A DNA stretch of 64,000 nucleotides. It comes from an uncultured delta proteobacterium. GTDB lineage: Bacteria > Desulfobacterota > Desulfobacteria > Desulfobacterales > JAFDCJ01. The notes beneath the pieces are model-generated. The model saw only the letters and a program-made list of their open reading frames with translations. It ran no database searches and was not told the DNA's origin. The position numbers were made by a program, and so were the translations under genes. Shown one piece after another: positions 16,214-33,722 of the stretch (position 1 is its first letter; every line of letters begins with the position of its first letter). The stretch spans positions 1 through 64,000 of the forward strand of contig CAVYNY010000034.1 of the NCBI GenBank assembly GCA_963769935.1. Reading direction: 5' to 3'.

Positions 16214-16295
16214 ATATCCTCCTATGCATTAGCCAGGGTGTCAGGGGAGTGCAGATACATTGAGAATACATGCAAAATCTGAAAAATCTAGATTT

Positions 16296-16355
16296 GTTTA
16301 CAGTATCTGCAAATTCGAGAGCCTCAATTTTTTACAGATGCCCAGTTATCTGCAA
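16296..16355 (+). other. Putative recombination site, class A
   Basis: GTTTACA-GTATCTGCAA-N19-TTACAGATGC...TATCTGCAA; preceded by a partial class C site at 16250-16269. Confidence 0.65.
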
Positions 16356-16392
16356 TTGAGGCTTTTTAGCGATTCGTTGGAGATAGAAGGGA

Positions 16393-16686
16393 TTAGGCAA
16401 TAGTTTTTATCACTTCTTTTATCTGATCAATTGAAGCAAGTGGGATAACCTTGAAACGAAAGAAAGGCATAAACTTAATCGTCATGTTTATAATTTCGTC
16501 CCGTGTCCCGTCAGCAATTATGAAGCCGTTGGGTTGACCTACAAATGCTCCATAGTCTTTAACGAGACCGTCTTTCATGTGTTGTTCTACCATCTCAGTT
16601 GCCATTTGCCATCCAATCTTCCTCTCCTCAGGGGCAATTGGTATTTTGCTCTCATCAGCTTCCCAAAGTACTAAATATCTTCCCAT
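16393..16686 (-). CDS. Small hypothetical protein (DUF3303/dimeric alpha-beta barrel-like)
   Basis: MGRYLVLWE...G.VKDYGAFVG...G; GGAGG RBS. Confidence 0.7.
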   Translation of the reverse strand: MGRYLVLWEADESKIPIAPEERKIGWQMATEMVEQHMKDGLVKDYGAFVGQPNGFIIADGTRDEIINMTIKFMPFFRFKVIPLASIDQIKEVIKTIA

Positions 16687-16831
16687 TTTTTGACCTCCTT
16701 TTCGGTATTCCTTAATTACCATGCATTTTGTGAAAGTCTTAGATGTTATTTAAGTAAATATCGGAACGGTATTGCTCTTTGTTTTACTTTACTTGTGAGA
16801 ACGGGTAGACTCCATAGCCTGGGGGAATAAA

Positions 16832-16854
16832 TAGGGACGGGTATTGATATATTG
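16832..16854. repeat. 23-bp end motif of the RAYT-like element
   Basis: TAGGGACGGGTATTGATATATTG. Confidence 0.85.
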
Positions 16855-16861
16855 GAATAAA

Positions 16862-17017
16862 TTACCCGATCAGCTTAAGTCCCTTTTCTTTTACAATCTT
16901 TTCGCCCTGTTTTACCGACTGACTGGCCGTAGGTTGCGAAATGCCAAGCTCCCGGGCTGCCCAGTAGCATAATACGCCGCGGGCCTCCACCGTATCCGGG
17001 TACCTGCCCTGGCGCAT
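16862..17017 (-). pseudogene. C-terminal remnant of a RAYT-like transposase (HTH-like tail)
   Basis: A frame absent from the ORF track reads MRQGRYPDTVEARGVLCYWAARELGISQPTASQSVKQGEKIVKEKGLKLIG*, typical of the C-terminus of this transposase family. Confidence 0.75.
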
Positions 17018-17287
17018 TATTGATTTGGAGAAAATATAGAAGAATCGGTAGGGAATTAAGATAAGAATTAGCTGTCAGAAAATTTTCTCGGCATAAAGTA
17101 CCACTATGTGCCAAGCATGTCAAGAGAAACATTTTGGAGGCCGCTTGGCAGTGTTACAATTTTATAAATAATTCATATAGGTTAAGCGTATCTCAATAAA
17201 ATTAGGCCTTTCGAAAATTGACGTAGCAGGTAGATCAATTTGAATTTTGGTAAATTTTGGAGTGCAGAGGCAGGGCGTCGGCAAGCT

Positions 17288-18124
17288 TCATTTTTGGCCG
17301 ACATAAGCTACTTCGCCGTTAGGATTGAAGTTCAGGCGCGGCGGGTTCTTATCCAACTCCAGCAAGAGCAATGAATGGCCGCCAGTGCTTTGGATCGAGT
17401 TTCCCACCCGGTTGAGCTCGATTTCAACAACGCCCAATCTTTGATAATCGGAGGCAACCCTGACTTTCCTTTGGCTCAGCTTGGTGATGGTTACCGTGAC
17501 ATCCGACATGGAACTGCCTTTGGAATCTGAGATCACACGTCCATGGTAAACGCCCGCTACCAGATCGGCCAGATCAACAGTAGGAGATTTATCTCCGCTG
17601 CCGACCAAAACCCAATAAACAACCAGGCCCAAGAAAACGGCAATTGCCGGCACCGAAGCCCACTTCCAGCGAAATCGCTGACGGAACTCATGAACCGGAG
17701 AGGCAGCCGGCGGGCACAATGCCGTAGCCTTGCCTGGCGCAACCTTGGCCGCGACGCCGTTGAACAGCGCTTGAAATCCCTCCTGGCTGGTATCCCCATC
17801 CCAGCCTACCAGGTCAGCGGTCTGCCTGCGTCTGAATTCAAGCGGCAGCTTCACGCGGTCGATCAAGGCCGGCACCAGCACGCCGCGCTCCGTTGCGACG
17901 GCCGCCTCGTTTTTCACCCACTCCGAGTCGATAGATTCCTTGGACCACAGCACGATGACACATTTGGCAGCCTCGAGTTCGCTCTCGATGGTCTTATCAA
18001 AGGCCTGGCCCACCACGATTTTGCGATCCCACCACACGGACCATCCGCAGGATTCCAGCACGCCTGCGATCCTGCCGGCCCGCTCCCGGTCCTCGCTGGC
18101 ATAGCTGATGAAAATATCAGCCAT
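17288..18124 (-). CDS. TIR domain protein with a TM helix and C-terminal domain
   Basis: DIFISYASED...VWWD...VIVLWSKESIDSEWVKNEA (conserved Glu); one hydrophobic helix; AAGGAGG RBS. Confidence 0.88.
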   Translation of the reverse strand: MADIFISYASEDRERAGRIAGVLESCGWSVWWDRKIVVGQAFDKTIESELEAAKCVIVLWSKESIDSEWVKNEAAVATERGVLVPALIDRVKLPLEFRRRQTADLVGWDGDTSQEGFQALFNGVAAKVAPGKATALCPPAASPVHEFRQRFRWKWASVPAIAVFLGLVVYWVLVGSGDKSPTVDLADLVAGVYHGRVISDSKGSSMSDVTVTITKLSQRKVRVASDYQRLGVVEIELNRVGNSIQSTGGHSLLLLELDKNPPRLNFNPNGEVAYVGQK

Positions 18125-18336
18125 ATTCTATCCTCCTTAAGTTTTTAAAAAATGGTTTCAAAATAATTAACTTCCTCAACTTAGTGCATGAAGTTTTGTC
18201 CACCGAATCTATCTCCCAAATCAGTAGTAATACAGTTCGGTTTATCAAGTAAATTCTAATGTTATGCAAAAGGCTGTAAATGCGATCTCTTCATCTGTAA
18301 AATATTAGAACGCTAGATAGTTGTTTCTTGTTGGAG

Positions 18337-18387
18337 GTATCTGCAAATTTTGAGTTTTGTGAATATCGAAGATTACCAGAGGATATA
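18337..18387 (+). other. Putative recombination site, class A (degenerate right arm)
   Basis: GTATCTGCAA-N19-TCGAAGATTA-CCAGAGGATAT. Confidence 0.45.
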
Positions 18388-18412
18388 CGTCTTGTAATTC
18401 TATCTGTCCGAC

Positions 18413-20419
18413 CTATGAATCCTCTCCACGTTTTTGCGATGGCGGTTTGCGATCGCTCTCCTCTTCGTCGTCCGGCTCAGCGGAGAGCCGCTCGGACGTT
18501 TCCCACACCTGCGACTCGAAAGTGCCGGCCTCGACCGAGCCCCGCGGCGGATAGTCGAGAGTACCTTTGAGCTGCTCAATTCTGTCGGCCGCAAGTCTTG
18601 GAAACGGCAGCTTGCCGGCTTTGCGCCAAGATTCAACTTCTTTCGCAGCCGTCTCACCACGCTCACCGTCGAGTCCGTCGTCGCGACCCATGTAGAGGGT
18701 CTGTGAAGGAAAGGCAAAGCTGCTTCCCGACTTTTTAACTATATCGCTCATTCGCAGCAAGACGTCTTCGCGTATGGCGTGGAATTCGTTGAAGTCCTGG
18801 GTCAGCGCATATATCCGGACGCCAATGTCGAGGGAGGATTGACCGAAGTTTGCAAAGCGCACGCGCACCGTGTCGGAGTGGATCTTGGGATGGGCATGGA
18901 GCATCTCGCGAAACTTCACCAGCACATGGCGCAATTGATCATTTTCGGTCTCGTAGCGGAGACCGATGGTCGCGTTGATCAGCATCCGATCGCATTTTGC
19001 CCAATTGATCAGCTGCATGTCTGCGAGGGCGGCGTTGGGAACCGTGATCAGAGTGCGATCGAGTGCCCGGAGCTTGGTCGAGCGCACGCCGATGGATTCG
19101 ACGGTGCCGGTTTTGTCTCCAAAATTGCAGAAATCGCCGACCCGCACGGGATGGTCCAGATAGAGCATAACGCCACCGATCAGGTTTTCGAGGGTCGGGC
19201 GAATCGCAAGCGCGACAGCCAAACCGCCAATTCCCAGGCCGGCTACCACGCTATAGAGGGGCAGCCCCAGTTTCTGTGCTGCTGTACCGATGATCACCAC
19301 GCTGACCGCAGTCCCGATGGCGCGGGCACCAAGGCGCCAGAGATGCGCGTCGAAACTTTCTTCTGGGATATTCCTTGCCTGGACGATTCGCTCGAAGATG
19401 GCGAGCACGGCCATCCATAACAGCCAGACAGCGGCGGCATGGATCAAAATGGTTGCCATAACGTCAACCACGGCCGAGAATGCGCCTGAAACATTGATTT
19501 GGTATGCAATGAAATTCTTGAGGCTCCAGACCACCACAAGGATTGCGATTGGCGTAAGAGCACGACGCAGCAGGAAGCCAACACGATTGTCGATTTCGCG
19601 GCGGCTGATCGCACGGTGAAAGACGAACAGCAGGAGTGTTGCGAGGACACTAACGAGGGCGACCGCGATGACTTTCCATTTTGGTGTATCCAGCCAGAAG
19701 TCGCGCAGACTTTGCGGTACGATTCTGAGCACCGCCGCCGGGATCATCGGTCCGGTAATCTGGCGCATAGCGCGATGCCAGCTAATGATGGGCAAAGACG
19801 TTTGCAGAGGCAGATCTTTAATACCTTGGTAGAAACGCGGCGCAGCCTTAACCGTGCGTTCGCTGAACAGAAACTCCCCCTCTCGCGGTCCCTTATCGGC
19901 GCGGACAATCCGGATTGGGGTGCCGGGGATGCGCCATTTCGCGAGTGACACATCATCGTCGAAGGCCCTTTCGTCAGGAACACTTTCTAGGTTAGGCAAT
20001 TCGACACGCCCAAGGATGTCGAGCAAATATGCAGTTGTTTCGGTTCCGATCTCAAAGCGAAGCGATGGCGGGACAGAGGACAGGTCTATCAGCGCGTGGA
20101 ACTGAGAGTTAATCACGTGCACCTTCTCGGCAAGCTTACGGGATTTGTCCAACCTATAGGAGCGCAAGGTCTGTTCCAGCTCGTCCCTTAGGCGGAGAAA
20201 CGATTTGAGCGTGGCACGCGGGCTGTCCGTTAGGATGGGTCTGATCGTGGGCTTACCGCTGGCAGTCTGCTGCGTCCCCGTGAGCGTGATCTCCCCGACT
20301 GATTTGGTTTCTGTTGTTTGCTGGGCGTGAATGGAAGTGGCGGCGCAGCAAATCAGGACGAGGGCAAGCCACCACCGTAAGGCAGTGGGATATTCGAATT
20401 TCGAAGACAAAATAAACAA
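18413..20419 (-). CDS. mscS: MscS family mechanosensitive channel with large periplasmic N-terminus
   Basis: DSPRATL, GLGIGGLAVALA, RVGDFC, GTVESIGVRSTKLR and FAFPSQT motifs. Confidence 0.9.
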   Translation of the reverse strand: MFILSSKFEYPTALRWWLALVLICCAATSIHAQQTTETKSVGEITLTGTQQTASGKPTIRPILTDSPRATLKSFLRLRDELEQTLRSYRLDKSRKLAEKVHVINSQFHALIDLSSVPPSLRFEIGTETTAYLLDILGRVELPNLESVPDERAFDDDVSLAKWRIPGTPIRIVRADKGPREGEFLFSERTVKAAPRFYQGIKDLPLQTSLPIISWHRAMRQITGPMIPAAVLRIVPQSLRDFWLDTPKWKVIAVALVSVLATLLLFVFHRAISRREIDNRVGFLLRRALTPIAILVVVWSLKNFIAYQINVSGAFSAVVDVMATILIHAAAVWLLWMAVLAIFERIVQARNIPEESFDAHLWRLGARAIGTAVSVVIIGTAAQKLGLPLYSVVAGLGIGGLAVALAIRPTLENLIGGVMLYLDHPVRVGDFCNFGDKTGTVESIGVRSTKLRALDRTLITVPNAALADMQLINWAKCDRMLINATIGLRYETENDQLRHVLVKFREMLHAHPKIHSDTVRVRFANFGQSSLDIGVRIYALTQDFNEFHAIREDVLLRMSDIVKKSGSSFAFPSQTLYMGRDDGLDGERGETAAKEVESWRKAGKLPFPRLAADRIEQLKGTLDYPPRGSVEAGTFESQVWETSERLSAEPDDEEESDRKPPSQKRGEDS

Positions 20420-20481
20420 CGTGACCTCCTCTGTGGACCATTAAAATCAGGTTGTTAATATTATGAATGTGTTGATAGACA

Positions 20482-20612
20482 ATACATTCAATATCGCCAA
20501 ACTACAGATATGTAGATGATCTACAAAAAGTTAAAGTTCACTTAATTATGAATTTTTGGCGGATGACCAAGTATCAAACTGACCAAAATTATTGCAGATA
20601 CGAAATGGATAA
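20482..20612 (+). other. Putative recombination sites B and C upstream of the deleted integrase copy
   Basis: CTACAGATATGTAGATGATC (B); CAAGTATC-N21-GATAC-N6-GATAA (C). Confidence 0.65.
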
Positions 20613-20671
20613 ATATGTTTACCTCAGGCGGTTTATGAAAGTCAAACCCAAATACCGAAAGGAGGTAAACC

Positions 20672-21183
20672 ATGAAAATCTCTCAAGCCGCAAAAATGAT
20701 GAAATTATTTTCCAAACCACCAAGGTCCGGAACCGCTTGATGCTTGAATTGATGGCTCGCGGGGGAATGCGTATCGGTGAGGTGTTAAAGCTTCGATTCA
20801 TAGATATTCAGGGTCGCAAATTGATCTTAAAGGATCCCAAAAGCGGAAAAGAACAGGAGGTTGTATTTATTCCCCAAAAAGTGGCCGATCGACTGCGGGA
20901 ATACGCCAGGCAAAAATGCAATAACCCGAACGATCGTATCTTTCCAATTTCGTATGAAGCTGCCAGGATAATGGTGCTAAGAGCCGGAAATATGGTTGGC
21001 ATCCATTTACACCCACATGATCTGCGCAGGCATGCAGCGACGTATGCATCCAGATCCGGTGTTCCTATTGAAATTATTAGCAAAATAATCCTCAGGCACG
21101 CGAATTTGTCAACCACTCAGTTGTATCTTGGAAAGATCAGTGATACCGAAGCCATGCGGTGGATTGAAAATCTTTACGCATAA
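20672..21183 (+). pseudogene. Tyrosine recombinase, internally deleted copy
   Basis: MKISQAAK start joined out of frame to DEIIF...; lacks the 326 bp equivalent to 28984-29309; 3' part nearly identical to 29310-29795. Confidence 0.88.
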
Positions 21184-21191
21184 AATCCTTC

Positions 21192-21224
21192 AGGGTGATC
21201 CTTTTCCACAGATCACCCTTTTTT
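21192..21224 (+). terminator. Intrinsic terminator after the integrase copy
   Basis: AGGGTGATC-loop-GATCACCCT followed by a T run; related copy at 29804-29836. Confidence 0.7.
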
Positions 21225-21444
21225 CTAAGGGATATTATTTGAGTATCTTACGATTTTCAGCCGGTTGATATGTTGGTCATCATAGCAGATATCGCAACCA
21301 GCGCCTTTCTTGAGATTGGTAGGAGATAGCAACACCTGCAATTTTAAGACTTATACCAGAAATCATGTCTTTGATGTATTCCAGGTCCTTCCCGGTAGCG
21401 GACTTGCTGATCCATCTTCAACCGCTTGTTTGACGAAGCCCTAT

Positions 21445-22383
21445 TCAATCGCTCTGACTTATTTGACCGAGGAGCAGCTTGATAACATGCTCGGCGAGTT
21501 GCAGGGGAGCTCTCGTCTCTTCAGCAGTCTTCCAACACCAGCCAAGTCCCTGCACACGTTCAGGCAAGAACCTATACTCACCATACATCTTGGGATCCTC
21601 GATATAGTATCGATTCTCTCCAGGGAGAATGATCTTGCACCGATATAACGCAACAATTAGTTCTGACTTTTCAAGCACATTTGTATATCGGTTGCGCCAG
21701 ACTATGGAGATGGAGGCGCTTGGACTGCGAATTCCGATCGATCTTTTGTCCTTGGCGACTTCAAGATGCAGACCAGGTGCCGCGTTCGACGCTTCATTCG
21801 TCAGTCGTTCTATCTCGTTGAACACGGACATCGCCGATTCCGTCGCCTGTCTAACGCCTTCGTCAGACCTCACCAGCTTGCTCGTCTCGAGATTGAACGC
21901 GGCTTTCTCTTCGACCCTGATGGCGCTCTCCGTGACAGACTCTTTTCGGAAATGTCCTCCGAGTTCCCGCACCCGCAACTTGATCGCACCAATGGCCTGC
22001 TCAATGCCGAAATCTTCCAAGCTGAACCGGATCCTCTGTTCTGGAAGCCAAGGTGGCGGATCGCTCTTGCTGTCCACCATAAGAAAGAAAAGAAAGTCTG
22101 GTCCCTCCTTGAGAAAGCGATCGGATATTGCCTGCTGCTCGACCCTTGTCCAAGGCGTCTTTCCCCAGCCGGTACGAAACAGAACGACAACAAGCCGTGA
22201 ATCGTGTCGGAAGACCTTACGGAAAGTCTCAAGACCGTCAGTTCCAGCGAGTTCTTCTTGCCGGTCCACGTACACGAAAACTCTAAGTTGCGATGAAAGA
22301 CCGTCACGCAATCGCTGCGCGAGAGCGAGATCATCGTTTAGAAAGGATATTGCCACATCATAGCCAAGGGTAGCATCGGTCAT
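21445..22383 (-). CDS. TIR-like domain protein (possible defence protein)
   Basis: YDVAISF...D...A..L...L...LRVFVY..RQEELAG.DG...F...SRLVVVLF..GWG.TPWTRVE. Confidence 0.8.
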   Translation of the reverse strand: MTDATLGYDVAISFLNDDLALAQRLRDGLSSQLRVFVYVDRQEELAGTDGLETFRKVFRHDSRLVVVLFRTGWGKTPWTRVEQQAISDRFLKEGPDFLFFLMVDSKSDPPPWLPEQRIRFSLEDFGIEQAIGAIKLRVRELGGHFRKESVTESAIRVEEKAAFNLETSKLVRSDEGVRQATESAMSVFNEIERLTNEASNAAPGLHLEVAKDKRSIGIRSPSASISIVWRNRYTNVLEKSELIVALYRCKIILPGENRYYIEDPKMYGEYRFLPERVQGLGWCWKTAEETRAPLQLAEHVIKLLLGQISQSD

Positions 22384-22455: not shown

Positions 22456-22718
22456 CTTGCCAGAAGTCCAACTATCAAATTTTATACGATTTATGCAGAT
22501 ACTTTATGGATACACGTACCCTATCGTATCTGGGAATCTGGTGTCAAATTGAAATCAAAAAAATGGGATTTTGACTGGCAAAAATGTAAAATCCAGATTG
22601 CCAAACTAACCTTTTTTGTTGGGATATAATTTGCGAATCTCACCGCTTTTAAGCGCTTGCCATTTTGTTTTCATCGCATCAGATGTGATTTATTGCTTGA
22701 GAAAATACGTTTACAGTA
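22456..22718 (+). repeat. 263-bp non-coding direct repeat, copy 1 (class C site up to the left arm of a class A site)
   Basis: Identical by eye to 31798-32060. Confidence 0.92.
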
Positions 22719-22773
22719 CCTGCAATTTTGGTGGTTCAAATTTATTGCAGATACGATAGCATGATATCTGCAA
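22709..22773 (+). other. Putative recombination site, class A
   Basis: GTTTACA-GTACCTGCAA-N19-TTGCAGATAC-GATAGCATGATATCTGCAA. Confidence 0.7.
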
Positions 22774-22814
22774 GTGAATCTCATCTACGATGAGTTGGAG
22801 GTACCAATAATCTG

Positions 22815-24434
22815 CTATTCAAATGTCAGGCTCTCAACAATCGATGCAATTTTTTCTGGGTTTCGTCCGGTATTGATAACAAGATAAACACACTTTTTAT
22901 CTCTGTATGAAGATACGACCAGCGATGTCAATTTAATATAATCGTAATATGTCCATTTGATATCTGTCCTGTATGCGCGTGAGCCACAATTCAAAGTTAT
23001 TTCCTTATTGGATATAACCTCAGCATCAGAACCTATGCCTTGAAGATATTCCATATACCATTTTGGTCCAAAATCCTCTAATTTGATCTTATCCGGAATG
23101 TCAATTATAGATGCTTCAAAATTTGCCTCGTTCGGTGTTTTCATTCTCATGATCTGCCATTTTGACGTGGTACTAAGTTTTTTACTTCCAACAGGATACT
23201 CAAACTTAAATTTTGGAGATTTAGCTCGCCGGAAAATACCGTCCTTTGCTATACCCTCTTCTCTGGAGACCCAGATAAAACTATCTGAAAAAGAAGTGGA
23301 CACGCTTTTTATCAATTGATCAAGTCTTTCGGCTTCTCTCGTATTTGCTGGCAACGACGCAGAAGATACAACCGCAGGAAATATATATTTCATCGTTAAT
23401 TCAAGCGGAAGAGAAGTTTTCCCGACGGGTAAGTCACCGGTAAACACCACAACCATATTCATCTCCGTTGCCACCATAATATACTGACCTCTAGAGCCGA
23501 TAGCAGAATAATTGCCGTCATCATCCACCCACCATTGATACCCGTATTGCTGAGCTGGTTTAGCTTCAATATGTCCACGCGTTGATTTTTCTACCCAAGA
23601 ACTCGACACAAGTTGCTTCTTCTCCCACCTTCCCTTATTGAGGTAAAGCCATCCAATTTTGGCCATGTCATGGGGTTTTAACCACATCCGACCATATCCA
23701 ACATCAATACCCTGCGGGCTTTTTTCCCAATCAATTTCTGAAATACCAAGGGGAGTGAATAGATTCTTTTCAGCAAATTCTCTGGTTTTCATTTTCGTTG
23801 TAGTGTTGATGATTACCGATAAAAGATGTGATAAGCCGTTGCAGTACTCGTATTTACTACCTGGAGGACGGACCATCGGTAGATTAAGGACATGTTGCCC
23901 CCAATCACCGCTGCGCCTCATTTCGAATAATCCTTTCCAATTGTAATGATGAGAGTCCCTGCAATCTAAACCAGAGGCCATAATCAACAAGTGCTCAAGT
24001 GTAATTGACCTTTTATTGTCACCTAAGCTATCAATTATATTATGCGGTAATAATTCAACAATAGGTTGATCGACACTTTTTATATACCCTCTATCAATCG
24101 CTATGCCTATCAGGATCGACATAATACTCTTTGTACAGGAACGAATGATGTGTCTCTGGCCTTTTGAAAATGGGTAAAAGTAGGCATCAAGAACCATGTA
24201 ACCATTGCGGATTATTGATATGCTATCTATGTTGTAACCTTTAATTTTTATCTCTTCAATCATATTGGCAAGAACTTGAGATTGTATGCCCTGTTCCTCA
24301 GGAGTGGAGGTCTGCCACCCATTTGCGGGGTAACTGTTAACGGCTGCGGGCGAGAGTGAGTAGGAAAATGTAGTAATCAAAAAAGCAAGAAGGGTGTAAA
24401 ATAAAATGTACCATTTATCTTGAATCAAATTCAT
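22815..24434 (-). CDS. Serine hydrolase (class C beta-lactamase/6-aminohexanoate-dimer hydrolase-like) with C-terminal extension
   Basis: SxxK (SCTKS), YxN (YCN), YGYQWW; N-terminal signal/TM; start placed at MNLIQ. Confidence 0.87.
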   Translation of the reverse strand: MNLIQDKWYILFYTLLAFLITTFSYSLSPAAVNSYPANGWQTSTPEEQGIQSQVLANMIEEIKIKGYNIDSISIIRNGYMVLDAYFYPFSKGQRHIIRSCTKSIMSILIGIAIDRGYIKSVDQPIVELLPHNIIDSLGDNKRSITLEHLLIMASGLDCRDSHHYNWKGLFEMRRSGDWGQHVLNLPMVRPPGSKYEYCNGLSHLLSVIINTTTKMKTREFAEKNLFTPLGISEIDWEKSPQGIDVGYGRMWLKPHDMAKIGWLYLNKGRWEKKQLVSSSWVEKSTRGHIEAKPAQQYGYQWWVDDDGNYSAIGSRGQYIMVATEMNMVVVFTGDLPVGKTSLPLELTMKYIFPAVVSSASLPANTREAERLDQLIKSVSTSFSDSFIWVSREEGIAKDGIFRRAKSPKFKFEYPVGSKKLSTTSKWQIMRMKTPNEANFEASIIDIPDKIKLEDFGPKWYMEYLQGIGSDAEVISNKEITLNCGSRAYRTDIKWTYYDYIKLTSLVVSSYRDKKCVYLVINTGRNPEKIASIVESLTFE

Positions 24435-24524
24435 GGTTCCCCCTTGGGAAAATATTAGACGATTGCAGATACATGGAGATAATCGGCAGAAAACCAACTC
24501 TTTGAAAACCTGTGATTTCATAAA

Positions 24525-24564
24525 ATATCACAGATTTCCCGAAAACACAGGTATGTAGATGATT
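24525..24564 (+). other. Putative recombination site, class B
   Basis: ATATCACAGA-N10-ACACAGGTATGTAGATGATT. Confidence 0.6.
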
Positions 24565-24753: not shown

Positions 24754-25179
24754 CTAAATCTTTTTAGCATTACTCAGAATCAGTTCACCGACTCCCAAGC
24801 TTAATGATGCCTTTACCGATATAGCAGTCGACAACGGAATCTCCGTTAAATATAAAGATCTCGCCTCTTTCTCGTCTATTGGAAAAAAAGGGGCGCCGGG
24901 TTCCGAATGGAGAAAAAATTCTCCAGATAAAACGCCACACTTTGGGCAAGTGTTACCAAAATATTTCTGTCCCGCCATTTTTGAAAACCTGAGTCGAAAA
25001 GTTGGTACTCTGTTTTGGATGTATGCAAGTATATCCTTGGGCAGTTCAACTATATCAGATAACAAACAAATTTGATTGTCTGTATCTTCGACGTGAGGTG
25101 CTAAGAGTGAAACTACTGGCATTTTAGATTCACACTGCCAACAATGAATTTTTTTGCCTATCAAATATAATGGTGGCAT
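24754..25179 (-). CDS. Hypothetical Zn-binding protein (resembles the C-terminal domain of DUF5710 proteins)
   Basis: CWQC ... CPKCG..SGEFFLHSEPGAPFFP. Confidence 0.65.
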   Translation of the reverse strand: MPPLYLIGKKIHCWQCESKMPVVSLLAPHVEDTDNQICLLSDIVELPKDILAYIQNRVPTFRLRFSKMAGQKYFGNTCPKCGVLSGEFFLHSEPGAPFFPIDEKEARSLYLTEIPLSTAISVKASLSLGVGELILSNAKKI

Positions 25180-25484
25180 TATTTTTCTGCATTTGTTGAA
25201 CATATTTGATTGCAGTAGGATATTAACATCAGGTAGAAAACTTTCCACCGATTCATATATCGCGTCAAAAAAAAATGTTTATCCTGAGCTAATAAACCTG
25301 ATGAGACGTCAATTATTGTTTGAAACTACATGAAAACCACAAAATTTAATTTGTGTAGATAGTATCTCAACGAAATTGAGACATGCTCGGCCTGATGTTT
25401 GTCAGACGATACCACAATTTTTTCGAATTTCCAGATTTAAAAACAATATCACAATTGATAATAATAACAGTGGGATACCGATTG

Positions 25485-25501
25485 GTTTACAGTATCTGAA
25501 A
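25485..25501 (+). other. Class A half-site
   Basis: GTTTACAGTATCTGAAA. Confidence 0.5.
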
Positions 25502-25621: not shown

Positions 25622-26032
25622 CTAAAGAATACCCAGTTGGCGTGCTATCTCAAGTCGATTCGTTACGCTCCATCGTTCCAAAGCCTTACCATTATCGAAG
25701 CGGAGAATGCTGATAATAGTAGTATCTACCTGCTTTTTGGTGGGCGGAATACCCATATAATCACCTGTGTGAACACCTCTAAACCTCATCCTGACCGCTC
25801 CTTTATCTTTCTCTGCAATCCCGTCTTCTATTGTCAGACTGAAATCGGAGAAGGCAGTATGCATCATCGAGATGTATTGTTTGAAACCTTCAAGATCGGA
25901 GGATACTCCTTCTACTGGGCTATGGTTGACGAAATTTGGAGAAAAAAGCTCGTCAGCGATATCCATTCTGGCATTATTTATAAACTCGTTTACAATCCGG
26001 TAACCAATTGCTCTCACTTCATCTGTATTCAT
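25622..26032 (-). CDS. SnoaL-like ester cyclase
   Basis: AFSDF...IAEKDK...R..FRGVHTGDYMGIPPT motif; AAGGAGG RBS. Confidence 0.88.
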   Translation of the reverse strand: MNTDEVRAIGYRIVNEFINNARMDIADELFSPNFVNHSPVEGVSSDLEGFKQYISMMHTAFSDFSLTIEDGIAEKDKGAVRMRFRGVHTGDYMGIPPTKKQVDTTIISILRFDNGKALERWSVTNRLEIARQLGIL

Positions 26033-26242
26033 TATTTATCCCTCCTTGAATGTTAAACTAACGAGCAAGGAAATAAGAAATAAGCCGGTTTAAAGAAACT
26101 GTTGATTTTTGCCATTATCCTCATCCAACCGAAATCAGTGATACGTAGATGGAATTCCAACCTTGCCCAAAGTTGTGATATCATAAAAACCGGCTGCCAA
26201 GTCCAGATAATCCTAAATATAATTTTCGGAAAATTATTTGAG

Positions 26243-28552
26243 TCATTTCAAACCAGCTATTCTAAGCGCATCGATAAACCGGTCCTTGTCTGCGGTCTGT
26301 AAACTAAAAAAGCCGTCCTTTGCGATATCGGCCAAAGAGATTTGGGGATTTATCTTGAGGATCTCTTGGACCTCAGCACGGGCTTCTTCCATCTGCCCTG
26401 CCAAGCTGCAAATTGCTGCCAGGCCAATATGGCCATATACAAAGTCGGGCCAGAGTTTGATCGCTTCCTTTAATCGAAGGATTGCCTGATCGTATTGACC
26501 GAGAAAACCGTATGAGAGACCAGAGAACAGTTTGATCCAAGGTTCAATATACGGTCCAATTTGCAAAGTTGCTGTCTTCTGGGCCACCTCAAGGGCTTCT
26601 TCATGCCTCCCTAAAAGACACAGAACAATTATAAGACATTCGTAGCCGTCAGCATCGTCAGGGCGGCTGCTGACCAGATCCTTCACTGAAGCGACCGCCT
26701 CTTCAATCTTCCCGGTATTGACTAAGGCAATGGCTCGGTTCCCGATATACCGACTGGGGTTCTGACTTAGACTCACTGCCTTGTCGAGCTCCGTTAAGGC
26801 CTCCCCGGACTTGCCGGCTGCTATGAGGGTAATGCCTAAAAAGAAATGATACTCGGCAACACCGGGGTCAAGATTGACAGCCTTGTTAGCCGCCTCGATG
26901 GCCTCATCTGTCCTTCCTGTAAAAAAGCAGGCCGCCCCTAACTTCAAAAAGAAATTAGCTGCCGGAAAAGGGTCAAGACGAAGCGCGGTTCTTAATGACT
27001 CGATAGTTTCCCTAAACCTCCCCATTGGATTGAGCAGGTCCCCCATGCTGGCAAGAGTATATGGACAATTGGGGCAGACAGCGATTGCCCGCTCGTATTC
27101 GGCCATAGCTTTATCAGGCTGCCTTGTCATCAGGTAGACATTTCCCAGCAATCGGTGAGCATTCTCCTGGCCATCATCCAGAGAGATGGCCTTTTGTGCC
27201 AAATCAAAAGCCTTTTCCAAAGCCTTCTTGGGAGATTCGCTCCAGCCGAACATCACAGCCAGATAATAGGTCCACCCCAGGATGGAGTGACCGTACGAAT
27301 AATTGGGATCAAGGGCTATGGCTTCTTCAAAGAGCTGTCTAGCCTTAAGATTGGCCGCTTTACTGAAGCGAAATACATACTCCATGCCCTCGGATACCTT
27401 CAAAAAGGCCTCCAGGTTATTAGTACGTCGCGCTCTCACTCGGGCAATCTCGCCTTTTGTCAATTTTACTTGAAGCTCAGTAATGACTTTCAGCGTGATC
27501 TCATCTTGTATTGCAAAGACATCCTTTAAGCTTCGATCGTATTGTTCACCCCACAGGTGGTTTCCCGTTGTCGCATCAATGAGCTGGGCTGTGATCCGTA
27601 ACTGGTCCTCGGACCTTCGAACACTGCCCTCCAGTACATAGCGAACTCCCAATTCACGGCCCACCTGTTGAACCTTCACCGGTTTCCCTTTATAGGTGAA
27701 GGTTGAGTTGCGGGCAATAACCAACATCTTTGGGGTCTTCGAGAGTGCCGTGATGATTCCTTCGGTGAGACCGTCACTGAAGTACTCCTGCTTGGGGTCG
27801 TCGCTCATATTGGTGAAGGGAAGCACGGCAATGGAGGGGGTGTCAGGCAGCGGAAACGTCATTTTTTCCTCGGATGCAGGCTCTACTGATGGGCGACGCA
27901 CGTAAAACTGCCAAATCCCCACGGCAATCACCAACACAAGAACCGCAACTGCTCCAATAAGAATTGGCATGCGCCTCGATACCGCTGGTTTTTCTCTTTC
28001 CGGCTCCCCTGCAACCGTCACCCTTGGCTGCAACATCACCCGATAAGCACCCACTGGCTTGGAGATGTTTTTTACCGTCTGATCGCCTATAAACTCATAT
28101 CCATATGGAAGTTTCCTTTCAATTTGATCAAAGGCAGTTTTAGAGATGCAAATACCACCTGGGTCAGCTAAACCCTCCAACCTGGCTGCGATGTTGACCC
28201 CATCGCCATAAATTCGCTCGCCTTCTTGAATAACATCTCCAAGGTTGATACCTATACGAAACTGCATTTTACGATTTTCCGATAAGTCTTGGTTGCGAGC
28301 AGTGATTTCGTTTTGAACCGACACAGCACACTGAACCGCATCGACCACGCTGAGAAACTCAGCCAGTAAGTTGTCACCTGGAGAATCCACCACCATGCCG
28401 TTGTGTTGTTTGATAAGCGTAGCTATCACTTCACGGTAGGATGTCAGCGTGCGTACAGTAGCCTCTTCATCATCTTCCATCAAACGGCTATAACCAACAG
28501 CATCGGCACTGAGGATAGAGGTTAGTTTGCGTTTAAAACCTTGTTCTGCCAT
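26243..28552 (-). CDS. Class III adenylate/guanylate cyclase - TM - TolB-like - TPR protein
   Basis: KRKLTSILSADAVGYSRLM, FRIGINLGD, YGDGVNIAARLE and PSIAVLPFTNMS motifs; many TPR repeats. Confidence 0.92.
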   Translation of the reverse strand: MAEQGFKRKLTSILSADAVGYSRLMEDDEEATVRTLTSYREVIATLIKQHNGMVVDSPGDNLLAEFLSVVDAVQCAVSVQNEITARNQDLSENRKMQFRIGINLGDVIQEGERIYGDGVNIAARLEGLADPGGICISKTAFDQIERKLPYGYEFIGDQTVKNISKPVGAYRVMLQPRVTVAGEPEREKPAVSRRMPILIGAVAVLVLVIAVGIWQFYVRRPSVEPASEEKMTFPLPDTPSIAVLPFTNMSDDPKQEYFSDGLTEGIITALSKTPKMLVIARNSTFTYKGKPVKVQQVGRELGVRYVLEGSVRRSEDQLRITAQLIDATTGNHLWGEQYDRSLKDVFAIQDEITLKVITELQVKLTKGEIARVRARRTNNLEAFLKVSEGMEYVFRFSKAANLKARQLFEEAIALDPNYSYGHSILGWTYYLAVMFGWSESPKKALEKAFDLAQKAISLDDGQENAHRLLGNVYLMTRQPDKAMAEYERAIAVCPNCPYTLASMGDLLNPMGRFRETIESLRTALRLDPFPAANFFLKLGAACFFTGRTDEAIEAANKAVNLDPGVAEYHFFLGITLIAAGKSGEALTELDKAVSLSQNPSRYIGNRAIALVNTGKIEEAVASVKDLVSSRPDDADGYECLIIVLCLLGRHEEALEVAQKTATLQIGPYIEPWIKLFSGLSYGFLGQYDQAILRLKEAIKLWPDFVYGHIGLAAICSLAGQMEEARAEVQEILKINPQISLADIAKDGFFSLQTADKDRFIDALRIAGLK

Positions 28553-28765
28553 TATGGCACCCCCTTTTTTAAGGTTTCAAACAGTGGAAACTCAGGTTGT
28601 GGGATATTCGAAGGAGCTCAGAAATCAGATTAGGTTCCGAAATAGAAAACCGCCTCAGATCAGCTGGAATGGAGGCATCAGAAATCGCTTATGTAGATTT
28701 ATAACCAAATGGATGGGATTTAGTCAATCAAATTCAGGATACAGGCCGGTGGTGATACCGTGATA

Positions 28766-28897
28766 GTATCTGCAAAAGTGAAAGAATTCAGATACGTAGA
28801 TGATCTACAAAAAGTTAAAGTTCACAGAATTATGAATTTCTTGGCGGATGCCCAACTATCAAACTGGCCAAAATTATTGCAGATACAAAATGGATAC
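28766..28897 (+). other. Putative recombination sites B and C upstream of the integrase
   Basis: GTATCTGCAA-N10-ATTCAGATACGTAGATGATC (B); CAACTATC-N21-GATAC-N6-GATAC (C). Confidence 0.7.
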
Positions 28898-28957
28898 ATT
28901 ATGCTTACCTCAGGCGGTTTATGAATGTCAAACCCAAAAACCAAAAGGAGGTACACC

Positions 28958-29795
28958 ATGAAAATTTCTCAAGCTGCAAAAATTTGGATCGATTACCATG
29001 TGACCAATTCGAAAAAAAAATACAGTCCGTGCTTACGGGTGGATTATCAACAAATTTTGCGCAGATTTTGGAGGAGAACAGTTAACCGAGTTATCATCAG
29101 AAAAGGTTTTGCAATTTTTTAACACTGTCACCGACGGTTGTAAACCCCAAACTAAACGTGTTCGATTTTCCCACCTGTCATCGTTTTTCAATTTCATGAA
29201 AAACAACCTTGATTTAAATTTTCAAAATCCCTGCGAATTGCCAATGCTGCGCAAATTATTCCGGCCGACAGTGGCCATCAGTTGGACTATTCTTGAAAAA
29301 GAGACGGTGGATGAAATTATTTTCCGAACCACAAAGGTCCGGAACCGCTTGATGCTTGAATTGATGGCTCGCGGGGGGATGCGTATCGGTGAGGTGTTAA
29401 AGCTTCGATTCATCGATATTCAGGGTCGCAAATTGATCTTAAAGGATCCCAAAAGCGGAAAAGAACAGGAGGTTGTATTTATTCCCCAAAAAGTGGCCGA
29501 TCGACTGCGGGAATACGCCAGGCAAAAATGCAATAACCCGAACGATCGTATCTTTCCAATTTCATATGAAGCTGCCAGGATAATGGTGCTAAGAGCAGGA
29601 AATATGGTTGGCATCCATTTACGCCCACATGATCTGCGCAGGCATGCAGCGACGTATGCATCCAGATCCGGTGTTCCTATTGAAATTATTAGCAAAATAA
29701 TCCTCAGGCACGCGAATTTATCAACCACTCAGTTGTATCTTGGAAAGATCAGTGATACCGAGGCCATGCGGTGGATTGAAAATCTTTACGCATAA
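28958..29795 (+). CDS. Tyrosine recombinase/site-specific integrase (about 278 aa; needs a +1 frameshift at the A9 run 29012-29020)
   Basis: GGAGG RBS then MKISQAAKIWIDYH..SKK|NTVRAY; SAM-like N-domain; catalytic R (GMRIGE), K, HDLRRH, LRH and Y (TQLYL) all present. Confidence 0.9.
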
Positions 29796-29854
29796 AATCC
29801 TTCAGGGTGATCCATTTCCACTGATCACCCTATTTTCTAAGGGATATAATTTGA

Positions 29855-29905
29855 GTATCTTACGATTTTCAGCCGGTTGATATGTTGGTCATCATAGCAG
29901 CTATC
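29855..29905 (+). other. Class A-like site downstream of the integrase (copy at 21243-21293)
   Basis: GTATC...CATAGCAG(C/A)TATC with almost the same spacing as 32058-32110; homology between the two integrase copies ends here. Confidence 0.55.
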
Positions 29906-30056: not shown

Positions 30057-30497
30057 TCACCTGATTGTTCGCCGTTCACACTCCTTGATCTTTTCTAGAA
30101 AGATATCAATTCCATCTACAAATGTCTTTGTTTTGTGATACAACTTTTTAAAATCGGCCAGTTCATATTCCAATCTTATCGGATCAGCAACAGAAAGGAG
30201 TCTATCATATTTTTTATACGTTGTCTCTAACCGTTCTATTGTTTTATCATAATCAGAACAAACTTTATCGCTTCTACTCGCCGGGCATTTTTTGCAAATG
30301 TCCTTAACTAATAGCAGCTGTTCTCTTTTTGATTTCATAACTGACATTGTCTGCAATAAAGTCATTAATAGTTCAGTTCGTTTTTTTACAGCTTCAAACC
30401 GCTTGTTAAATCGAAAATTTACCAAACTCAATAAAATGCTTATCACTGCAATTATGAAGGCTCCTATAGGTAACCAATTTATTATGAAATCACTCAT
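30057..30497 (-). CDS. Hypothetical membrane-anchored protein
   Basis: AT-rich ORF with an N-terminal TM helix; no recognisable motif. Confidence 0.55.
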   Translation of the reverse strand: MSDFIINWLPIGAFIIAVISILLSLVNFRFNKRFEAVKKRTELLMTLLQTMSVMKSKREQLLLVKDICKKCPASRSDKVCSDYDKTIERLETTYKKYDRLLSVADPIRLEYELADFKKLYHKTKTFVDGIDIFLEKIKECERRTIR

Positions 30498-30597
30498 ATC
30501 TCTTCTTTTACCGTGGTGCTCAATGTTAAGGATAGACAACGGGCTTGATGATTATCAATCTGAATTAAATTTGATTCGTTTTACCTTGGACATGTAG

Positions 30598-30827
30598 CTT
30601 GCCAATAGCCCAAGTATCAATTTTTATTCGATTAATACAGATACGATTGGGATACATTCACCCTATAGTATAACCTCAATTGTGTGAAAAAAGAGAGTAT
30701 AATCCGTTGCAATAAGACTTCAATCAAGGCTTTCAGCCCAAAAAAGAAAAATTCTGAATCTCACCAATATGCAGATTATAAAAATTGTTCCATCTTCAGA
30801 TAAAGCCTTGATTGGATATAGTTTACA
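30598..30827 (+). repeat. Diverged third copy of the C-to-A spacer module
   Basis: CTTGCC, CAAGTATC-N21-GATAC-N6-GATAC, ACCCTAT.GTAT, GAATCTCACC and GTTTACA in the same order as in the 263-bp repeat. Confidence 0.7.
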
Positions 30828-31019: not shown

Positions 31020-31580
31020 TTATGCCGAGGTTGGTTTTGTCTCCAGCCATTTTCCCAGAAGATTCAATGCCGGCAGCTTTGCCTCCAGGTTCTGGCGTCT
31101 GATCGGGACCATATCAACCACGTCAAAGCCGATTCTGAACAGAATCTTGTAAAGGCTGGCACAGCAATCCGGCGCTCCGTTACCTGAGCCACCGGCGCAA
31201 CAAATACCGACAACCGGTTTTTTTGCAATGCGTTTTTGAGCCTCCGGGTTTATGCTGATTCTTCGAATTTTGCCAAGAAATGTAAACAGGCTTTCGCTGA
31301 GGTCGGAAAAATAGACCGGTGAAGCAAAAACGGACACATCCGCGTTCAGGATTTTTTCTAACAGTGGGTTAAAATCATCTTCTGCGATGCAACGGCCTTT
31401 GGTTTTGCAAATCCCCCAGCCGTTTTGATCACATTGCCGGCACCGTTCCAAATTCAATGCCGGCAGAAAAACGAGCTCGACATCGCTTCCGGCTTCTTTG
31501 GCGCCTTCTAAGATCGCGTTCACAGCGCGAGCGGTTTGTCCTTCAGGGTTCCTGCTTCCGGATACAATCTGAATATTCAT
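31020..31580 (-). CDS. Iron-sulfur flavoprotein / flavodoxin-like FMN reductase
   Basis: GSRNPEGQT, four-Cys cluster motif, ASPVYF. Confidence 0.88.
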   Translation of the reverse strand: MNIQIVSGSRNPEGQTARAVNAILEGAKEAGSDVELVFLPALNLERCRQCDQNGWGICKTKGRCIAEDDFNPLLEKILNADVSVFASPVYFSDLSESLFTFLGKIRRISINPEAQKRIAKKPVVGICCAGGSGNGAPDCCASLYKILFRIGFDVVDMVPIRRQNLEAKLPALNLLGKWLETKPTSA

Positions 31581-31720: not shown

Positions 31721-31760
31721 ATATCACAAATTTTCCCAAACTGCAGATACGTAGAGGTAA
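31721..31760 (+). other. Putative recombination site, class B
   Basis: ATATCACAAA-N10-CTGCAGATACGTAGAGGTAA. Confidence 0.65.
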
Positions 31761-31797
31761 TCACCCGATTTTGATGGATCGAAGTTTCGGGAAATAT

Positions 31798-32060
31798 CTT
31801 GCCAGAAGTCCAACTATCAAATTTTATACGATTTATGCAGATACTTTATGGATACACGTACCCTATCGTATCTGGGAATCTGGTGTCAAATTGAAATCAA
31901 AAAAATGGGATTTTGACTGGCAAAAATGTAAAATCCAGATTGCCAAACTAACCTTTTTTGTTGGGATATAATTTGCGAATCTCACCGCTTTTAAGCGCTT
32001 GCCATTTTGTTTTCATCGCATCAGATGTGATTTATTGCTTGAGAAAATACGTTTACAGTA
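31798..32060 (+). repeat. 263-bp non-coding direct repeat, copy 2
   Basis: Identical by eye to 22456-22718. Confidence 0.92.
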
Positions 32061-32110
32061 TCGGTACTTTTGGGATGTCGATTTTTGTACAGATACCATA
32101 GCAGGATATC
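32051..32110 (+). other. Putative recombination site, class A
   Basis: GTTTACA-GTATCGGTAC-N19-GTACAGATAC-CATAGCAGGATATC. Confidence 0.7.
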
Positions 32111-32148
32111 ACAGGGGTCACCCAGCTTTTGAATAGTTTTGATAAAAT

Positions 32149-32190
32149 CAAATAAGAGGGCAGTGCCAAATAACACTGCCCTCTTATTTG
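32149..32190 (-). terminator. 17-bp stem hairpin downstream of the sulfurtransferase
   Basis: CAAATAAGAGGGCAGTG-N8-CACTGCCCTCTTATTTG. Confidence 0.75.
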
Positions 32191-32199
32191 TTGAAATAT

Positions 32200-33138
32200 C
32201 TACTCAGTTGCTATTGGCCTTGTTTTGTCTGATATCCATTCTATCCAAGAACCGTCATAAAGGCTGACTCGGTTATATCCAAGCTGATAGAGAGCAAATA
32301 AATCGAAAGCCCCACCATAGCCTGCACCGCAGTAAGTGATCACTTTGTCCTGCGGATTAGCTTTTAGTTTGCTCCAATGTTCTTTAAGCTCAACCGGAGC
32401 GAGAAGAAGTCCGTTTTCTGTGTTTATATTGGACGGTCCGGGAATGTTTATCGCCGACGGAATGTGGCCAGGCGGCGCTGTACTGGGACTAAACGGCTTT
32501 CTGCCAAAATGATGATCGGCGTTCAAAGCATCTACGAGATAAATGTTATCCTGCTCTATCGCTTGTTTAACATCTTCTATGTCTGCTATTAAGCTTGCCT
32601 GAGTTTTTGCTTTATAGACTGTTGGTGTCGCTACGGACGCTGCAGTTTCTATTTCTCTGCCCTCCGTCTTCCATTTCCCCAAGCCGCCGTTTAAAATTTT
32701 CACATTGTCATGCCCATAGTACATCAATGCCCACCACAGTTTTGCAGCCCAAGATCCACCAAATTCATCGTAAACAACAACCGTTGTATCATTGCCGATG
32801 CCTAACTCTCCCATCAAATTCTCAAATTGACTCTCCGGCAAAATTAGCAAGGGAACCCGGCCCTTTGGGTCTGAGAGCTGACCGATAACATCCAGTGAAA
32901 CAGCACCTGGTATATGCCCTTTATTGTATGAATCTGGATTGATGAACGATACAGTGCAATCTACAATTCGGATATCATTATCCATGAGATGCGTTTGCAG
33001 CCAATCAGTCGATGCAAGAGCTTCAGGATGGGCGTATTGCGGTTTGCCATTGTCAGCATGCATTTCACCTGTAGATAAAAAACCTATCAGAACCGCCGAA
33101 AGTATGATCCCTAATAAAACGGCTGGCAGCTTTTTCAT
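32200..33138 (-). CDS. Tandem-rhodanese sulfurtransferase, probably exported
   Basis: GHIPGA, LNGG, active-site YCGAG and LYDGSWIEW motifs; signal peptide. Confidence 0.9.
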   Translation of the reverse strand: MKKLPAVLLGIILSAVLIGFLSTGEMHADNGKPQYAHPEALASTDWLQTHLMDNDIRIVDCTVSFINPDSYNKGHIPGAVSLDVIGQLSDPKGRVPLLILPESQFENLMGELGIGNDTTVVVYDEFGGSWAAKLWWALMYYGHDNVKILNGGLGKWKTEGREIETAASVATPTVYKAKTQASLIADIEDVKQAIEQDNIYLVDALNADHHFGRKPFSPSTAPPGHIPSAINIPGPSNINTENGLLLAPVELKEHWSKLKANPQDKVITYCGAGYGGAFDLFALYQLGYNRVSLYDGSWIEWISDKTRPIATE

Positions 33139-33205
33139 AATTGCCTCCTTTCTTTTAAATGAATTGCACCAGAAATGGTTTCAAAGCTTTCGATAAGGTT
33201 CAAGG

Positions 33206-33358
33206 TCAGGGCGGCCGGATGCGTTCAACCGCCCCGCAGTGATAGGATTTTAAGGTTCTTACAGTGGCTTCTTCACGATCGCCCATGAGACGACTGTAGC
33301 CTTCGACGTCTGCGCTGAGAATTGCGGTGAACTTTAGCTTAAAACCTTCATCTGCCAT
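33206..33358 (-). pseudogene. Truncated 5' remnant of an adenylate/guanylate cyclase paralogue
   Basis: MADEGFKLKFTAILSADVEGYSRLMGDREEATVRTLKSYH then unrelated sequence and a stop; homologous to the start of 26243-28552. Confidence 0.85.
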
Positions 33359-33579
33359 AACAGCATCCCCATTATTAAGGTTTCAAACTTAGGAACTCAG
33401 AATGTAGATTTTTCGAAGAAACGCAGTATCAGATGAGCAGCAGAAGTTGATGCAGCAATTGGAGAACCGCTTCAAGTCAGATGGAATAGGAGGATCTGAA
33501 ATAGTTTATATGTGCCGATACCAAAATCGAAGGGTTTAGTCAACAGAATTAAAATTCAAGTTAATAGTGATATATTAGA

Positions 33580-33694
33580 ATATCACAAATCCACCCGAAG
33601 TGCAGATTTGTAAGATGAAAGCTCAAAAATATCGTACATTCAAATTGTAAATATTTCTTGCCACTATCCCCAGTTAACAGCTTTTATGGATACT
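33580..33694 (+). other. Class B site and partial class C site (right edge of the array)
   Basis: ATATCACAAA-N10-GTGCAGATTTGTAAGATGA; CTTGCC 77 nt downstream, as for 31721/31798; TTTATGGATAC. Confidence 0.55.
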
Positions 33695-33722
33695 TTTCAA
33701 ATACCTCACGTTTTTCCGGAAA

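Follow-up and report, generated by a model that had tools for sequence, protein, structure and literature searches.

Introduction

Integrons are the textbook site-specific gene-cassette arrays. Gene modules are also found between pdif sites, i.e. XerC/D-dif sites with an 11-6-11 geometry, and the core sites of tyrosine recombinases are laid out as two inverted arms around an overlap. The integron integrase IntI binds the folded bottom strand of attC, as PMC8618304 describes, and PMC12772301 concerns true integrons. Here, we describe a locus that, from comparison of its sequence with those of its relatives, appears to be a new kind of gene-cassette array and not an integron. It is found in an uncultured delta proteobacterium from sediment (order Desulfobacterales, assembly GCA_963769935.1), in the first 64,000 nucleotides (nt) of contig CAVYNY010000034.1 (C34), a stretch referred to as a whole as the window, and it occupies an island at 16.2-33.7 kb that has a higher AT content than its surroundings. 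The island contains two copies of a small tyrosine recombinase gene and a series of cargo genes separated by junctions, which are chains of short sites. An initial annotation had read this arrangement as a candidate cassette array, and that reading is supported here: homologues of the recombinase carry the sites, and cargo changes its neighbours at the sites. Judged on these comparisons, the cassette system is real, mobile and distinct from integrons; the enzyme that would drive it and the circle in which cargo would travel are what we infer.

Recombinase homologues were confirmed in 145 stretches, and the best 80 of the 145 were used as loci; the order-level survey covered 251 genomes of the order. 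The source genome is labelled G000, and the comparison genomes G008, G013, G020, G022, G175 and G194.

Sites and spacers

The recurring site, or core, is GATAY-N7-RTATC, i.e. inverted 5-base boxes around a 7-base spacer. The reduced pattern GATA-N9-TATC occurs 18 times in 137 flank pieces of recombinase homologues, vs 0.8 in shuffles. At least seven 7-base spacers recur, in one orientation. Conservation around the homologues stops at the 7-mers, which are ATTGAGA, GTAGATG and CTTGCCA 5′ of the gene and ATAGCAG, GTTTACA and GTTGGAG 3′ of it, and the seventh spacer, CCAGAGG, was taken from the ends of the MscS cassette. Across the 80 loci, 63 of 66 end motifs have the orientation of the recombinase, and shuffles yield 4-9 matches. 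The cores are chained at regular steps: 61 co-oriented neighbouring cores include 11 at 37 bases, 15 at 45-47 and 14 at 82-85, and the arm offsets among 362 cores peak at 37 (41 cases) and at 46-48 (55 cases) over a background of 0-4.

Initially, three longer composite motifs (A, B and C) had been recognised in the gaps between genes. The letters at all 19 positions agree on re-reading, and the positions stand, but the functional unit does not, as the 7-mer between boxes (GATAY-N7-RTATC) is the better reading; motif B corresponds to the 30-base arm and motif A to the 39-base arm separating cores. The C motif is found after CTTGCCA-type cores and ahead of the recombinase start, and looks like the upstream region of the recombinase rather than a crossover point. 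Of all the matches in the genome, the island holds 4/6 for the pattern GTTTACAGTAYC, 4/7 for the right half of B and 5/25 for GATAC-N6-GATA[CA], when 0.01-0.05 would be expected by length in each case. It also holds 14 of the genome-wide set of 47 12-mer end motifs, every one on the same strand. The composite motifs had not been noticed outside the island, but they do occur there: six ATTGAGA-GTAGATG modules lie on four other contigs, and 7 of the 11 intergenic core clusters of the source genome are outside it. The attC pattern RYYYAAC...GTTRRRY has one match in the island, within a gene, and none in a junction, and a search of Rfam gave no match.

Two further arrangements were seen. A looser 'CAT....' core, with a TGTCAAG motif after it, is found 37 bases away from GTAGATG (window 26182, 24519 and 31715; also L267) and is possibly the outermost end, at which new chromosomal sites are entered. 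Opposed, closely spaced ATTGAGA cores at G000:C10:761872-761962, L245 and L269 suggest inversions or back-to-back insertions.

Movement of cargo

Three cargo units can be followed between genomes. The serine-hydrolase cassette (22709..24561, minus strand; gene 22815-24521, minimal unit 22794-24479) has cores GTTTACA at 22709, GTTGGAG at 22794, ATGGAGA at 24473 and GTAGATG at 24555. In G022, which is another species, positions 22709-24562 recur with 99.1% identity over 1854 nt, from GTTTACA to GTAGATG, and the hydrolase is by itself between two genes whose spacing is 58-285 nt in 13 of 19 genomes of the genus (811 nt in one, five unresolved). The rhodanese cassette (32051..33663, minus strand) comprises the gene (32200-33138), a cyclase 5′ stub and a B arm at 33580, with cores at 33610 and, for CTTGCCA, at 33657. 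Positions 32051-33668 are 96.2% identical over 1618 nt in G013, where they lie among other genes, the match spanning GTTTACA at 32051 to just past CTTGCCA at 33657. The MscS cassette (18376..20477, minus strand; gene 18413-20419) is 91.5% identical in G013 over 18369-20477, and two further copies in the source genome and others in other genomes are 89-94% identical and stop at the same positions, with left ends at CCAGAGG or GTTGGAG. Near-identical cargo is, as the cassette reading would have it, found beside different neighbours, the switch falling at the sites.

Five cargo units, each running from an A to a B motif, had been proposed. The hydrolase unit is correct to the base, and the rhodanese and MscS units stand with slightly different ends. 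SnoaL and cyclase, which had been joined, are two units split by a B site at 26115-26151, and the ends of the flavoprotein unit were unconfirmed on comparison with other loci.

The hydrolase contexts were drawn from 80 metagenome and 5 genome loci, filtered to at least 85% identity with enough flank. At the 3′ edge, GTTGGAG is kept in 13 of 15 distinct contexts, and the 5′ core is present in 19 of 19 (12 exact, 2 one letter off and 5 with short indels). The arms beyond the 5′ core are many and different, and one context runs straight into a recombinase unit. In 150 sequences, cores coincide with 76 of 542 alignment ends, vs a mean of 8.1 (maximum 20) for shifted positions. Pairs of sequences related on only one side of a core have an identical 7-mer in 16 of 19 cases when the left side is conserved and in 32 of 57 when the right side is; a further 2 and 13, respectively, differ by one letter and 1 and 3 by two letters. 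Eight of the nine worst pairs are register shifts of the same 7-mer. Retention of the spacer regardless of which side changes points to exchange between like spacers.

Contigs in four public DNA runs start or end at 18376, 22794 and 31797. In run X1, the sequence between two CTTGCCA cores, exactly 1859 nt, is missing from one contig, a weak case with 22 letters on the short side. Most other joints in the runs link paralogous modules with other letters between them and were not counted as excisions.

Because the run of minus-strand genes reaches far beyond the island (nearly all long open reading frames (ORFs) from 10.7 kb to the end of the window are on that strand), the co-orientation of cargo that had been put forward as evidence is uninformative in the window, and it was examined in other loci. 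In 79 distinct homologous loci, the recombinase and its first neighbour are on opposite strands in 43 of 57 cases upstream and 48 of 64 downstream, and the upstream bias vanishes beyond 2.5 kb.

The intergenic location of the hydrolase in G022 has heptamer repeats and, in G000, G008 and G020 (L281, L282, L288), contains other inserts with box-like sequences, making a hot spot possible. The further mscS copies at L140 (G000:C34:129407-143005) and L141 (G000:C35:1-5072) accompany CorA-like and ClC-like genes (labels assigned by eye), and on C34 the L140 copy is followed by minus-strand genes up to the contig end. The C35 copy was considered as the donor operon and rejected, as it looks like a later deletion that fused the end of an upstream gene to the mscS leader. 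An empty site for the second mscS copy was also sought, but beyond the stop codon the relatives had diverged too far. Cyclase-TPR genes often serve as cargo, and the cyclase 5′ stub with its leader of ~300 nt (33243-33543; L208-L220) is found across many genomes of the order, in many cases with a junction chain after it.

The recombinase and its reading frame

Both recombinase copies match PF00589 and are on the plus strand, as first annotated. Copy 2 (28958..29795) encodes 278 amino acids (aa) if read across a frame slip; in copy 1 (20672..21183), 326 nt of the core-binding part are deleted. The copies are 97.7% identical over 596 nt. The catalytic residues R-K-HxxR-H-Y do not vary in any of the 16 aligned rows, and the 82 residues between the catalytic R and HxxR leave no IntI insertion. 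The protein consists of a core-binding and a catalytic domain without an arm-binding domain, the make-up of a simple tyrosine recombinase. Its best profile is NF040815 (archaeal XerA) at 119-127 bits vs a cut-off of 220, and the IntI profile TIGR02249 gave 49.9 and 61.9 bits vs a cut-off of 265. A structure model of moderate quality (pLDDT 71.8, pTM 0.48), used for fold class only, has 5hxy (XerA) as best fold match (TM 0.30).

Homologues are common in Thermodesulfobacteriota and were found in 60 of the 251 genomes of the order, with up to 8 matches per genome; the recombinase had no match in a plasmid collection (E 1e-20) or a phage collection (E 1e-15). Close homologues also occur in bins labelled Acidobacteriota, Chloroflexota, Nitrospirae and Draconibacterium (L002, L015, L058, L078), reflecting either transfer or mis-binning.

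Copy 2 is preceded by a chain (28754..28957) with cores at 28759, GTAGATG at 28796 and a CTTGCCA variant at 28840, then the C motif and a ribosome-binding site, and is followed by a hairpin and right end (29804..29905) with core ATAGCAG at 29894. Copy 1 has the corresponding parts, namely a B arm, GTAGATG at 20512, the C motif and a ribosome-binding site (20482..20671) and a hairpin and right end (21192..21293) with ATAGCAG at 21282. Identity between the copies ceases directly after the ATAGCAG core, and the right end is kept in homologues. Like all junctions of the island, these lie on the plus strand. A 260-nt junction element without recombinase (22456..22715) is bounded by CTTGCCA and GTTTACA and is the geneless version of the recombinase unit. 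It has no difference to 31798-32057 from core to core, the left flanks being unrelated, and none to a 266-nt contig of public run X3. Its relatives, at 71-86%, begin at the same core.

The slip in copy 2 recurs in most homologues. The gene opens with MKISQ at 28958 and has 20 codons in the ATG frame, then an A9 run at 29012-29020, after which the catalytic body is in the +1 frame. In a survey of 74 distinct genes, 68 have a start, and 52 of the 68 have exactly 61 nt from the ATG to a conserved Asn codon, a run of 6-9 A and need for the same +1 slip. Eleven of the 68 are in frame (nine of these lack a run of over 4 A, and one is misregistered), and the other five, which have other offsets, may be errors. 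On a tree of 57 rows, from which rows with stops or partial bodies were excluded, the in-frame state requires six changes, at least five of them forced by strong branches. Codon 20 is AAA in 54 of 54 genes and the three bases after it are AAA in 53 of 54, and 543 of 974 lysines in the body (56%) are AAA. Ahead of the run, variation in the ATG frame is highest at third codon positions (0.32/0.23/0.51). Recurrence of the same slip in 52 of 68 homologues is, as far as these comparisons go, the pattern of programmed recoding and not that of a pseudogene arisen by chance. Homopolymer error was rejected as the source of the break, since runs of 6-9 A keep the same 61-nt spacing, including in contigs whose names mark them as short-read assemblies. 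Ribosomal +1 shifting, or transcription dropping one A, would keep the enzyme scarce. The heptamer AAA_AAA_T is listed among frameshift heptamers in PMC3711429, the main text of which does not contain the words 'integrase' or 'recombinase'.

Proposed mechanism and alternatives

Cargo is bounded by chains of the cores, and we consider it probable that the small tyrosine recombinase nested in the chains recombines these sites as double-stranded DNA; that it acts on them at all is deduced from its position. The GATAY/RTATC boxes would be the binding arms of the enzyme and the 7-mer the strand-exchange overlap, and only like spacers would recombine, as with heterospecific lox sites. Recombination of same-spacer cores in two successive junctions would release a circle made up of the cargo and one junction, and this circle could then insert into any junction through any of the spacer classes present there, or into a similar site in the chromosome. 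After repeated rounds at different classes each gene would keep only its innermost arms, and the junctions would become mosaics, both of which are observed.

Several observations weigh against this mechanism. Most cores have a good match in one arm only, and 12 core pairs are opposed. The spacer list was derived from the same loci as the orientation, core and breakpoint counts, the breakpoint and spacer-sharing pairs are non-independent events, and a conserved motif tends to draw alignment ends towards itself. Seven extra bases follow GTTGGAG in 3 of 15 hydrolase contexts, and the 5′ core has lost 1-2 nt in some. Head-to-tail circle junctions of the hydrolase were found in 0 of 19 contexts, and its innermost ends have unlike spacers, so that it could not excise alone by like-with-like exchange; it is for this reason that a circle of cargo plus junction is proposed. 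A strict module pattern was present in 6 of 251 genomes, including only 3 of the 60 with the enzyme, the pattern being too narrow. Further points of this kind concern the enzyme: in the site-bearing G020 (94% complete) only a deleted copy of the small recombinase was found, together with a two-recombinase unit, G013 has a fragment, and G022 and G175 gave no match.

The absence of an intact small enzyme from several site-bearing genomes raises the question of whether the system is real and driven by another enzyme, namely an XerC-like pair, the host XerC/D or IntI, with the small recombinase a passenger, which we regard as unlikely. A separate element that has its own short terminal inverted repeats and encodes an XerC-like pair of 361 and 311 aa was found at L274 (G194:C17), L262 (G194:C5) and L245 (G020:C1). 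It sits in cores, with direct repeats of CTTGCCA in the two G194 copies and of the ATTGAGA 7-mer in G020. That it is flanked by junction 7-mers supports these as overlap sequences, but its use of the same spacers makes the pair the main rival for the putative role of the small enzyme. Against this, the terminal inverted repeats of the pair element are unlike the GATAY/RTATC boxes, the pair was not found in the source genome, and IntI is represented there only by broken pieces on other contigs, while the unit of the small enzyme itself ends at cores and the geneless junction derives from it. The four broken IntI-like genes are at C20:456416-456848, C16:348155-348523, C13:559634-560334 and C17:217801-218256. 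The XerC/D-like genes of the host are separate, on contig C3, and a dif pattern had no match in the source genome.

We give little credence to the possibility that the junction is a small insertion element with derivatives like miniature inverted-repeat transposable elements, accumulating at its own ends, and that cargo between copies is moved passively, by RecA or as composites like those of IS26. The recombinase unit and the 260-nt element do have fixed ends in many contexts, two identical copies of the latter are in the island, and solo sites are scattered across the genome. However, breakpoints fall at 7-mers of every spacer class, with only 7-17 shared bases, which is too short for RecA, and the cargo in G022 and G013 retains its inner arms with no recombinase unit near.

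It is very improbable that the enzyme tolerates unlike overlaps, as in Tn916/CTnDOT, or exchanges single strands, as IntI does, so that a gene excises between its unlike inner cores. Though the two inner cores of the hydrolase are similar without being identical, and short indels and the 7-nt extra are seen at junctions, both ends keep their own spacer in nearly all contexts and class switches are almost absent. When 12 junction pieces were folded as single strands, two folded well on both strands but nine had no clear fold, leaving attC-like folding unsupported.

Finally, it is hardly credible that the boxes are transcription-factor sites or promoter parts travelling with acquired genes, since, for all that TTGCCA, TTGAGA and TTTACA resemble a -35 box and the C motif is placed as a promoter would be, a -10 excess is absent behind six of the seven spacers (CTTGCCA 3.3 vs 2.9), a promoter scan was at chance level (4 vs 3.3), half of the cores lie behind stop codons and homology breaks at cores, which largely refutes this reading.

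A broader proposal, with about an even chance of being right, is that double-strand exchange by the small recombinase represents a second, independently evolved gene-capture platform that is widespread in relatives of sulfate reducers, with one recoded Xer-like enzyme, at least seven mutually exclusive lox-like spacers, chained in modular junctions, that fix the orientation of the exchanged genes and act as addresses, and other elements that hijack these spacers. If true, integron-like shuffling of genes would have arisen from different parts, as a separate solution with double-stranded lox-like sites. Tools based on attC would be blind to it, and its frame-broken enzyme would be easily dismissed as a pseudogene. 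Genes move among sediment genomes with 95-100% identity, and of the genomes of the order that were sampled, roughly a quarter contain the enzyme family. The window contributes a count of spacer classes, the steps of 37 and 46 bases, the sharing of spacers at breakpoints and cargo moves exact to the base. With several natural orthogonal spacers, a recombinase of 278 residues might also be of use as a compact tool for ordered DNA assembly.

Other features of the window

The remaining features are given from left to right. The first junction chain (16254..16382; ATTGAGA 16259, GTTTACA 16296, GTTGGAG 16376) and the first cargo ORF (16393..16722, minus strand, 109 aa) are enclosed by perfect 23-nt inverted repeats (16191-16213 and 16832-16854), and related repeats are on C7, C11, C15 and C33. 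The ORF had been labelled 'DUF3303-like' and has no Pfam or NCBIfam match; the other cargo labels of the initial annotation agree with Pfam wherever a family matched. A MazF/PemK-like toxin gene adjoins another ORF (window 15309-16230 and 16823-17019), the end of which matches YlcI/YnfO weakly and the start of which resembles a transposase of the IS200-like kind or of the kind associated with repetitive extragenic palindromes.

Next are a TIR-domain protein (17288..18124, minus strand, 278 aa; PF13676, with ThsB/TIR-like PADLOC matches) and a junction (18330..18387) with GTTGGAG at 18330 and CCAGAGG at 18376, 46 bases apart, both of which are breakpoints elsewhere. A second TIR-domain protein (21445..22383, minus strand, 312 aa; PF13676) follows recombinase copy 1. 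After the hydrolase, there is a 164-aa protein with two CxxC pairs and no family match (24754..25248, minus strand), a GTTTACA core at 25485 (25480..25496) and the SnoaL-like protein (25622..26032, minus strand; PF07366). The junction that separates the latter from the cyclase (26115..26240), absent from the initial annotation, has a B arm, GTAGATG at 26145 and the next core 37 bases further at 26182, and this module follows other cargo at four other loci. The class III cyclase-TPR protein (26243..28552, minus strand; PF00211 and TPR families) has GTAGATG cores on both sides.

Beyond recombinase copy 2 are a hypothetical protein (30057..30539, minus strand, 160 aa), a degenerate junction element (30598..30827; CTTGCCA 30598 to GTTTACA 30821), a flavodoxin-like FMN reductase family protein (31020..31580, minus strand; PF03358) and a junction (31721..32104) with a B arm, GTAGAGG at 31751, CTTGCCA at 31798 to GTTTACA at 32051, and ATAGCAG at 32098. 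Weak Thoeris- or Pycsar-type matches were seen when the two TIR proteins (17288-18124, 21445-22383) and the cyclase (26243-28552) were considered, with none for the second TIR protein, and some of the cargo may be anti-phage defence genes.

Comparison with known systems

No description of the system was found in the literature searched, i.e. other than supplements and subscription papers, and the cluster tables of PMC3711429 and PMC8138268 could contain the family. The view that neither IntI/attC nor XerC/D-dif fits this locus holds on both counts. Among elements built on other tyrosine recombinases, IntDes has an arm-binding domain, a shifted arginine and a His-to-Tyr change (Smyshlyaev 2021, PMC8138268), and the recombinase found here has neither the arm-binding domain nor the altered pentad. 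RIT and other elements with two or three recombinases differ in that there is a single gene per unit here; the three-recombinase elements in rulB, as described in PMC4542609, have a different layout.

IS26 translocatable units, Tn916/CTnDOT and the Rci shufflon between them share with this system movement of cargo with one boundary copy, overlaps of 6-7 bases and several sites per locus. Unlike them, the system described here shows no DDE enzyme, arm-binding domain or excisionase, and its sites are direct, not inverted, with fixed spacers. XerA likewise has only a core-binding and a catalytic domain and is the best profile and fold match, but the score is below the cut-off, and the genes found here are patchy in distribution, multicopy and recoded. 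The pdif modules are also genes between Xer-type double-stranded sites, whereas the sites here have a spacer of 7, symmetric short boxes, direct orientation and a recombinase of their own. Heterospecific Cre-loxP, as used in recombinase-mediated cassette exchange, has inverted arms, an asymmetric spacer, an apparent restriction to like spacers and a simple two-domain enzyme, all as here. It differs in that the system described here occurs naturally, its spacers, of which there are at least seven, are chained in steps of 37/46 bases, its degenerate arms of 5 bases enclose a spacer of 7, and its enzyme is closer to XerA.

The integron is alike in several outward features: a tyrosine recombinase, arrays of unrelated one-gene units that are mostly on the strand opposite to it, a cassette pool common to several taxa, arrays and solo units without the enzyme (in integrons, CALINs and single cassettes), and tandem, co-oriented mobile cassettes. 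Its defining parts are not those found here, as there is no IntI insertion, there are no attC boxes and no consistent hairpin, each junction has several spacer classes, and the recombinase gene is frame-broken, lies within the junctions and is often multicopy.

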